DNA from: a virus
Lineage: Duplodnaviria > Heunggongvirae > Uroviricota > Caudoviricetes
IMG/VR virus record: IMGVR_UViG_2700989161_000006
Direction: 5' to 3' (one strand)
Length of the DNA stretch: 24,501 bases
How positions within the stretch are numbered: the stretch's first letter is position 1; each line of letters starts with the position of its first letter. Shown one piece after another: positions 4,919 to 5,402 of the stretch. The position numbers and the translations under genes are program-made. Under the pieces are notes generated by a model, which made no database searches, was not told where the DNA came from, and saw only the letters and a program-made list of their open reading frames with translations.

Positions 4919-5200
4919 TTAATCATCTATATGTTTTGTACAGAGAGGGCAAGTATCGTTTCCACCGTACTCATGATAATAATTTTGCACGGTATCAGTC
5001 ATTTCTCGCACATTGCAGAATGGGGATTTGTCTTCATTAGACTTATAAACCTTCATGGAATATTTGTATGCCGACTCTATATCTATACCTTCATCTACAT
5101 AAACACCTTCGTGATGTCTGCATGGAGACAAGACACCGGATCTGCACAACATTGATAACGCCCAATCTTTTTGCTCAGACTCTAACTCATTGATACTCAT
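4919..5200 (-). CDS. Hypothetical Cys-rich small protein (93 aa), AT-rich
   Basis: ATG at 5200 preceded by AAGGAG; several Cys pairs including CPLC near the C-terminus; visibly AT-rich versus neighbours. Confidence 0.5.
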   Translation of the reverse strand: MSINELESEQKDWALSMLCRSGVLSPCRHHEGVYVDEGIDIESAYKYSMKVYKSNEDKSPFCNVREMTDTVQNYYHEYGGNDTCPLCTKHIDD

Positions 5201-5402
5201 TTATAAACTCCTTGCAATGTATGTCGTTTCAGCTAAACGGTATCAGCAATGTTTATGTAAAGAAACAGTAAGATAATACTCAACCCGATGTTTGAGTACG
5301 GTCATCATCTGACACTACAGACTCTGGCATCGCTGTGAAGACGACGCGAAATTCAGCATTTTCACAAGCGTTATCTTTTACAAACCCGTATTCCTGCTCA
5401 TC

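Follow-up and report, generated by a model that had tools for sequence, protein, structure and literature searches.

The lambda ea8.5 gene and its native spacer as a mosaic cassette in a thrW-integrated lambdoid prophage

The small gene ea8.5 of phage lambda has borne its name since the 1970s-80s and figures in about a dozen papers. Lambdoid phages also carry morons, a concept of Juhala and Hendrix, with lom and bor of lambda and gp15 of HK97 as examples. It is unusual for a tightly packed early operon to contain more than 110 bp of continuous non-coding sequence. Lambda's exo-xis region is transcribed from pL (PMC4195576, PMC7093339), and ea8.5 was found by CRISPRi to be non-essential in lambda (PMC10695390). 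When ea8.5 was supplied in multicopy, the CII-dependent paQ was repressed, pI slightly so, and lysogenisation was impaired (Los et al. 2008, as related in PMC7093339 and PMC3824215); these phenotypes may not reflect single-copy physiology. The orf73-ea22-ea8.5-orf55 segment has been implicated in blocking the initiation of host replication (PMC9239242). In yeast two-hybrid assays Ea8.5 gave at least 10 interactions, and proteins of this kind were flagged by the authors as promiscuous and less reliable (PMC3224144). Two solved homologues, 2M7A (EC0111_1119 from a prophage of EPEC O111:H-) and 2M7B (PP_3909 from Pseudomonas putida KT2440), are the basis for one bound zinc ion (Kwan et al. 2013, cited through PMC8614690), and Kwan et al. 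2013 describe their fold as a hybrid of homeodomain and zinc finger. Ea8.5 has been called ‘exclusive to lambda’ (PMC8614690).

We analysed a window of 24,501 nt of viral DNA (IMG/VR record IMGVR_UViG_2700989161_000006), in which a preliminary description made from the sequence alone had singled out a small cysteine-rich gene and the non-coding gap upstream of it. The DNA comes from a lambdoid prophage other than lambda, integrated at tRNA-Thr(CGT)/thrW. The tRNA-Thr(CGT) gene at 2727-2802 adjoins the tyrosine integrase gene, and the minus strand carries, in this order, an ea22-family gene, ea8.5, orf55, the excisionase gene and the integrase gene (Table 1). The gene of interest thus occupies the exo-xis slot: it lies on the early strand that is read leftward, beside ea22 and orf55, with the recombination genes on one side and xis/int on the other. 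In its right arm, at 17663-17818 (+), the prophage has two tRNA genes of its own, for Asn(GTT) and Thr(TGT), and a strong sigma-70-like match, TTGACA-18-CATAAT, lies just upstream of them (-10 hexamer starting at 17601).

Table 1. Features of the ea8.5 region and its neighbours in the window
Feature	Coordinates	Strand	Basis
Integrase gene	2817-3977	-	Adjoins tRNA-Thr
Excisionase gene	3854-4201	-	Profile match
Strong terminator-like hairpin after orf55 (GCCGCC TGAT GGCGG and T-run), equivalent to predicted lambda t5	4654-4673	-	Terminator scan
orf55 (lambda hypothetical gene lambdap35), travels with ea8.5	4663-4830	-	phrog_676, E=5.5e-40
Intrinsic-terminator-like hairpin directly 3' of ea8.5, equivalent to predicted lambda t3	4870-4901	-	9-pair stem, T-rich tail
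ea8.5 coding sequence, 93 aa, coordinates including the stop codon	4919-5200	-	ORF list; 93/93 match to lambda NP_040611; profiles; AlphaFold2 model
Shine-Dalgarno sequence AAGGAG, 7-nt spacing to the ea8.5 ATG	5208-5213	-	Read directly; same in lambda
AT-rich non-coding spacer, ea22 stop to ea8.5 start, 202 bp	5201-5402	-	Lambda alignment; ORF, RNA and promoter scans
Best sigma-70-like candidate of the spacer, TTCACA (5339-5334), 16 nt, TAGTGT (5317-5312), 111 nt before the ATG	5312-5339	-	PWM scan
11 bp, GAGCAGGAATA, just past the ea22 stop	5389-5399	-	Pairwise and multi-locus alignment
ea22-family gene (Ead/Ea22)	5403-6299	-	Pfam PF13935, E=1.2e-32

Identity, zinc site and fold of Ea8.5

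The open reading frame list and a base-by-base reading both place the start of the gene at the ATG at 5200..5198 (-) and the end of the frame at 4919. The encoded protein is identical in 93 of 93 residues to lambda Ea8.5 (gene ea8.5, lambdap36, NP_040611). It matches the Pfam family PF20735, Lambda_ea8_5, at 164.3 bits and E=1.1e-48, with residues 8-93 covering all 90 positions of the profile, and it matches phrog_6325 at E=8e-54. A HMMER search of PDB sequences returned 2M7A at E=2.5e-18, aligned over all 93 residues, and also 2M7B. Because the PF20735 score stands so far above the cutoff of 27 bits, the reading frame is a real gene, far above chance. Both the 93-residue frame and the perfect AAGGAG ribosome-binding site of the preliminary description were borne out. 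Judged by its sequence, the small cysteine-rich gene is the known, non-essential ea8.5 of lambda and hence already known and ordinary. The preliminary description had set its reading against a possible match to a housekeeping phage protein; the match obtained is to a phage protein that is known but accessory. A search of NCBIfam gave no match for Ea8.5, and the PADLOC defence profiles gave 0 matches at E<=0.01 for Ea8.5, orf55 and the 123-aa open reading frame downstream of it.

The Ea8.5 family is small. When 1.84 billion representatives of clusters at 50% identity were searched exhaustively with HMMER, no more than 73 clusters came up at E<=0.001. Among 45 aligned full-length members, which go down to 26% identity, the only invariant columns are M1, C27, H30, C84 and C87. 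The protein has cysteines at positions 19, 27, 62, 84 and 87, and C84-P-L-C87 is its sole CxxC motif; C19 and C62 vary among the 45 aligned members. The fact that C27, H30, C84 and C87 are the sole invariant residues besides M1 points to a metal site of the form C-x2-H ... C-x2-C, so that Ea8.5 is predicted to hold one CHCC zinc site, C27-x2-H30 ... C84-x2-C87. Zinc binding by the lambda-type protein is inferred from the solved homologues. The earlier suggestion of a small zinc-binding protein, which had been drawn from pairs of cysteines, therefore stands as regards the kind of protein, a small zinc-binding accessory protein with homologues in PF20735, 2M7A and 2M7B. It does not stand as regards the residues, since the site combines C27/H30 with C84/C87 while C19 and C62 vary.

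An AlphaFold2 model was built on the 45-member alignment, and its mean pLDDT was 85.6. It consists of helices at residues 3-21, 41-54, 64-78 and 85-92 together with a short hairpin. When the model was compared with the PDB using Foldseek, 2M7A (TM 0.65) and 2M7B (TM 0.59) were found, both with probability 1.00; apart from these two, no PDB structure was returned at E<1. The profile search and structure prediction called for by the preliminary description thus lead to a single family and to its two solved members. In the structural alignments, identity to Ea8.5 is 40% for 2M7A and 28% for 2M7B; both belong to the same family and share the predicted fold, and their CHCC positions align with those of Ea8.5. 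The model accordingly predicts for Ea8.5 the same hybrid of a homeodomain-like helical bundle with a zinc finger.

The cassette and its spread among lambdoid prophages

Window positions 4647-5429 align with lambda 29102-29873 at 96.8% identity. In the RefSeq annotation this part of lambda runs from the end of ea22 through the intergenic spacer and ea8.5 (29374-29655) to lambdap35/orf55. The two phages have in common the Ea8.5 protein, its Shine-Dalgarno sequence, the spacer, the t3 hairpin, orf55 downstream and a location flanked by an ea22-family gene and xis/int. In contrast, the integrase, the att site (thrW) and the body of ea22 differ; in the window an extra 123-aa open reading frame separates orf55 from xis, the ea22 stop is followed by 11 additional bp, and there are a few silent or intergenic substitutions. 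When the spacer was aligned base by base with that of lambda, at 29656-29846, the 11-bp indel and one substitution were the only differences. The 11 bp, GAGCAGGAATA, are present in the window and in most prophage copies and missing from lambda and its laboratory derivatives, so lambda has the rarer form.

The sequence that the ea22-family gene of the window shares with lambda ea22 is limited to the last ~30 nt, which mark the left mosaic junction, and the t5 hairpin is the right-hand limit of the lambda homology. The hairpin corresponding to lambda t3 has its stem at 4901-4880 and is kept after a 50%-identical allele (locus L007). In lambda, t3 was predicted with ARNold and t5 is likewise a predicted terminator (both in Table 4 of PMC4195576). 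In the counterpart of t4, at 4843-4866, the stem is disrupted by a C-to-A substitution (GCGGG to GAGGG), and the terminator scan did not call it. The gene between orf55 and the excisionase gene, at 4292-4663 (-), matches phrog_1229 and is not found in lambda. As listed, its 123-aa reading frame starts within the loop of the t5 terminator; since the profile match begins at residue 10, translation probably begins at the ATG at 4636, which is preceded by GGAG.

We also collected loci from IMG/VR, comprising 71 of the lambda type, 51 with the 2M7A-type allele and 3 with other alleles, and aligned 28 distinct lambda-type copies. In most of the lambda-type copies the homology starts within the last ~30 nt of ea22, GCTGGCATTCGCATCAAAGGAGAGTGA, and many unrelated ea22 alleles lie upstream. 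The spacer therefore normally travels with ea8.5. The segment GCTGGCATTCGCATCAAAGGAGAGTGA lies at 5403-5432 of the window, is common to otherwise unrelated ea22 alleles and looks like a site of short-homology recombination. Three recombinants are joined inside the spacer, at ~155 nt (L057), ~130 nt (L119) and ~55 nt (L124) before the ATG. On the other side of the cassette the homology usually spans the hairpin after ea8.5 plus orf55. Alleles of the 2M7A type occupy the same genomic slot: the gene follows an ea22-family gene and a spacer of 114 bp with a GC content of 37%, and after it come the same t3 hairpin and orf55.

The same module, ~97-100% identical, was found in lambda (attB at gal-bio), in the thrW-integrated prophage and in a prophage adjacent to sbcB. 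The last of these, in E. coli 1008S13, has a 100%-identical copy of positions 4880-5430; its integrase differs, and so does its recombination module (anti-RecBCD, ssb and Rad52/Rad22-family genes). Of 5,426 complete E. coli genomes, 237 contained at least 80% of the module, and some of the E. coli matches listed are laboratory strains (K-12 derivatives, C43(DE3)), which probably carry lambda or DE3 DNA. In the phage collection the module was confined to lambda and lambda derivatives. Since the same module occurs in different prophages and is joined to many ea22 alleles at a short conserved junction, ea8.5 and its spacer are, by the alignments, a cassette that is exchanged horizontally among lambdoid prophages. 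The earlier suggestion of a horizontally acquired accessory gene agrees with this spread and with the non-essentiality of the gene in lambda (PMC10695390).

In phage HK022 (AF069308.1, 22406-24011) both ends of window 4600-5700 were matched at 97% identity in two pieces, with 55% coverage. A tblastn search of HK022 found no ea8.5, and the same flanks seem to bracket different cargo. Full-length Ea8.5 matches of 99-100%, plus shorter partial ones, were also found in assemblies assigned to Shewanella, Pseudomonas, Bradyrhizobium, Oceanobacillus, Streptomyces and others (L128-L161), several of them contigs of ~48.4-48.5 kb and some labelled with very low coverage, and in two records, MW057783.1 and OQ055246.1, that are named ‘Campylobacter phage CJLB-4’ and ‘Xanthomonas phage vB_XooS_NR08’. 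The simplest reading of the matches in implausible taxa is that public records are contaminated with lambda DNA or are chimeric. The matches of the contig search with Ea8.5 were confined to such taxonomically implausible assemblies and are uninformative on host range.

Taken as a whole, the locus is very probably a mosaic cassette of lambda ea8.5 that is read from pL and encodes a pro-lytic zinc adaptor.

The spacer and possible promoters

The preliminary description had found no convincing reading frame in the ~200 bp upstream of the gene, and our scan agrees. The only frames of at least 20 aa in the gap are one of 21 aa (-), one of 28 aa (+) and a GTG-initiated one of 57 aa (+) that runs antisense into ea22. 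A search of Rfam, at gathering thresholds over the window and at E<=1 over 4600-5500, returned only tRNAs and a chance match to a Leu-leader (E=0.96). The predicted RNA fold of the spacer did not exceed that of shuffled sequences (z=0.11), and the terminator scan found none within the spacer.

Promoters were sought in two ways. In the gap, a consensus scan found no sigma-70-like site that reached 9/12. A scan with a position weight matrix, the weights of which were taken from textbook hexamer frequencies, gave TTCACA-16-TAGTGT as the best candidate on the minus strand. Its score of 9.15 lies in the top 0.13% of window positions. Because ~0.26 such sites are expected by chance in a gap of ~200 nt, this candidate is at chance level and is not evidence for a promoter. 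Two further candidates, the plus-strand TTGATA-17-TGCAAT and TTTATA-17-TAGAGT at the start of the coding sequence, were dismissed as chance or non-productive, so that neither strand gave a site above the chance level.

Phylogenetic footprinting of the lambda-type spacer was not informative. Almost every copy shares at least 97% identity, and the lone exception, L119 (92% protein identity), diverges in a way that looks neutral. L119 is homologous to the window from a point just upstream of the -10-like hexamer, which it keeps as TAGTAT, preceded by TGG, and its Shine-Dalgarno sequence is weakened to TAGGAC. The retained part of the spacer is 80% identical to that of the window, while the coding sequence is 94.7% identical with 9 of 94 third positions changed. 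The divergence of the spacer thus looks neutral, with no sign of extra constraint. The nucleotide data suggest that the gap serves as an untranslated leader and a recombination joint.

One alternative takes this further and regards the spacer as functionless filler, a scar of illegitimate or short-homology recombination, with ea8.5 expressed solely by read-through from pL. This explanation has a chance only a little short of even. It would account for the several different mosaic joints that fall within the spacer or at its edge, for the tolerated 11-bp indel, for the neutral-looking divergence and for a spacer that showed no structure, RNA family, reading frame or significant promoter in our scans. 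However, an AT-rich spacer of more than 110 bp precedes a strong Shine-Dalgarno sequence in every allele class examined, and early operons are otherwise tightly packed, with overlapping or abutting reading frames elsewhere in the window. Expression of ea8.5 in lysogens, reported at second hand, also argues against it.

A second alternative is that ea8.5, its spacer and its terminator form a moron, a self-contained unit with a cI-independent promoter in 5201-5402 that ends at t3 and whose protein acts in the lysogen (host modulation or protection), instead of or besides its action in lytic growth. We regard this as possible but rather doubtful. Base composition is one of its expected marks, and here the earlier claim that the gene is more AT-rich than its neighbours was confirmed. 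The gene has a GC content of 0.383 and the gap one of 0.401, which makes 0.390 over 4919-5402 together, compared with 0.468 for the ea22-family gene and 0.476 for orf55. In a sliding-window analysis of the prophage (484-bp windows, mean 0.469 +/- 0.038), 3.2% of windows were as low as 4919-5402, and stretches at ~8.9-10.0 kb had a GC content equal to or below it. The AT-richness is therefore real but moderate, ~2 SD, and the deviant composition of a moron is present. An intrinsic-terminator-like hairpin directly 3' of the gene, likewise expected of a moron, is present too. In addition, ea8.5 resembles morons in being an accessory gene with an upstream non-coding stretch and a patchy presence in relatives, and in its reported expression in the lysogen (second-hand).

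The diverged alleles bear on the same question. The anatomy of an ea22-family gene, a spacer of 113-242 bp with 34-42% GC, a gene led by a Shine-Dalgarno sequence and a hairpin recurs for alleles that are only 41-61% identical. Three of these (L053-L055, 54-61% identical) have spacers of 113-242 bp and 34-42% GC with a GC-rich hairpin and T-run downstream. Their spacers (L053:2330-2500, L054:2330-2500 and L055:2330-2500) align with one another and have in common TTTACA and an extended -10-like element, TGGTACATT, 31-32 nt before the ATG. This site lies in the top 0.02-0.03% of window positions in L054 and L055 and is not among the four best candidates in L053. The TGGTACATT site is the best promoter candidate found anywhere in the ea8.5 family. 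Neither the L053-L055 spacers nor those of the 2M7A type have any sequence relation to the lambda-type spacer.

Expression in the repressed prophage would also favour a moron. According to Bloch et al. 2014 (PMC4195576), who refer to ribosome profiling by Liu et al. 2013, ea8.5 is among the genes that lambda lysogens express without induction. Such translation, if the second-hand statement is accurate, does not fit an ea8.5 driven exclusively from pL, and a pL-independent promoter would therefore be required. Because the anatomy recurs in diverged alleles and translation in lysogens is reported, a weak cI-independent promoter for ea8.5 is plausible. Against a moron, the lambda-type spacer contains no promoter above chance, and its divergence between the window and L119 is at least as great as that of third codon positions (80% identity against 94.7% for the coding sequence). 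Natural recombinants swap the spacer up to 155, 130 and even 55 nt from the ATG; therefore, no single upstream element is kept by all copies. The statement on lysogen expression is itself second-hand, and no defence family was matched in PADLOC. Unlike in morons, the promoter of ea8.5 is a candidate only, the gene lies in the early pL operon and not in the late region, and its phenotypes concern the phage's own lysis-lysogeny decision and not host fitness.

A more specific form of the lysogen argument holds that the spacer has a weak cI-independent promoter, perhaps TTCACA-16-TAGTGT at 5339-5312 or one of poor consensus, that the ea8.5 family consists of monocistronic, terminator-insulated units expressed in repressed prophages and that the zinc protein is active in the lysogen; we consider this rather unlikely. 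That the spacer encodes its own small RNA or micro-protein is highly improbable: the length and non-coding appearance of the spacer and the 21-codon ATG frame at 5243-5308 (-) would favour it, but the spacer has no Rfam match at E<=1, no fold beyond shuffles and no terminator inside, and the small reading frame was rejected as it lacks a Shine-Dalgarno sequence and is broken by an early in-frame stop in L119.

Expression and significance of the cassette

The mosaic cassette read from pL is thus the explanation that we prefer. The cassette consists of lambda ea8.5, its native upstream spacer and the downstream terminator with orf55, and is a mosaic unit in the exo-xis, or early-left accessory, region. 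The identity of Ea8.5, its fold and its set of ligands come from the present analysis, and the remainder of the scheme from literature or inference. From the gene order and the lambda literature, ea8.5 would be read leftward within the pL operon by an N-antiterminated polymerase that passes the terminators upstream of it, and ribosomes would start on it at the strong AAGGAG. The 202-bp spacer would be an untranslated leader and a recombination joint, in which a weak repressor-independent promoter is possible. Transcripts from such a promoter would be halted by t3 (4901-4880), the degenerate t4 and the strong t5 (4673-4654), short of xis/int. Ea8.5 would then be an early product of pL, perhaps also present in lysogens in small amounts. 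Its role is most likely that of a small zinc-stabilised adaptor with a regulatory protein or nucleic acid as its binding partner, and it would tilt the decision to lytic growth.

As a discovery the locus carries little weight, and its residual value is practical: the spread of the cassette, the named ligands and the question of a promoter in the spacer. The description of Ea8.5 as ‘exclusive to lambda’ (PMC8614690) is too narrow, as ea8.5 circulates among different lambdoid prophages. The zinc ligands C27, H30, C84 and C87 are now named precisely for mutagenesis. If ea8.5 does have a promoter that works in the lysogen, Ea8.5 may tune induction, host replication or division, or superinfection, and its function would not be solely a delayed-early lytic one.
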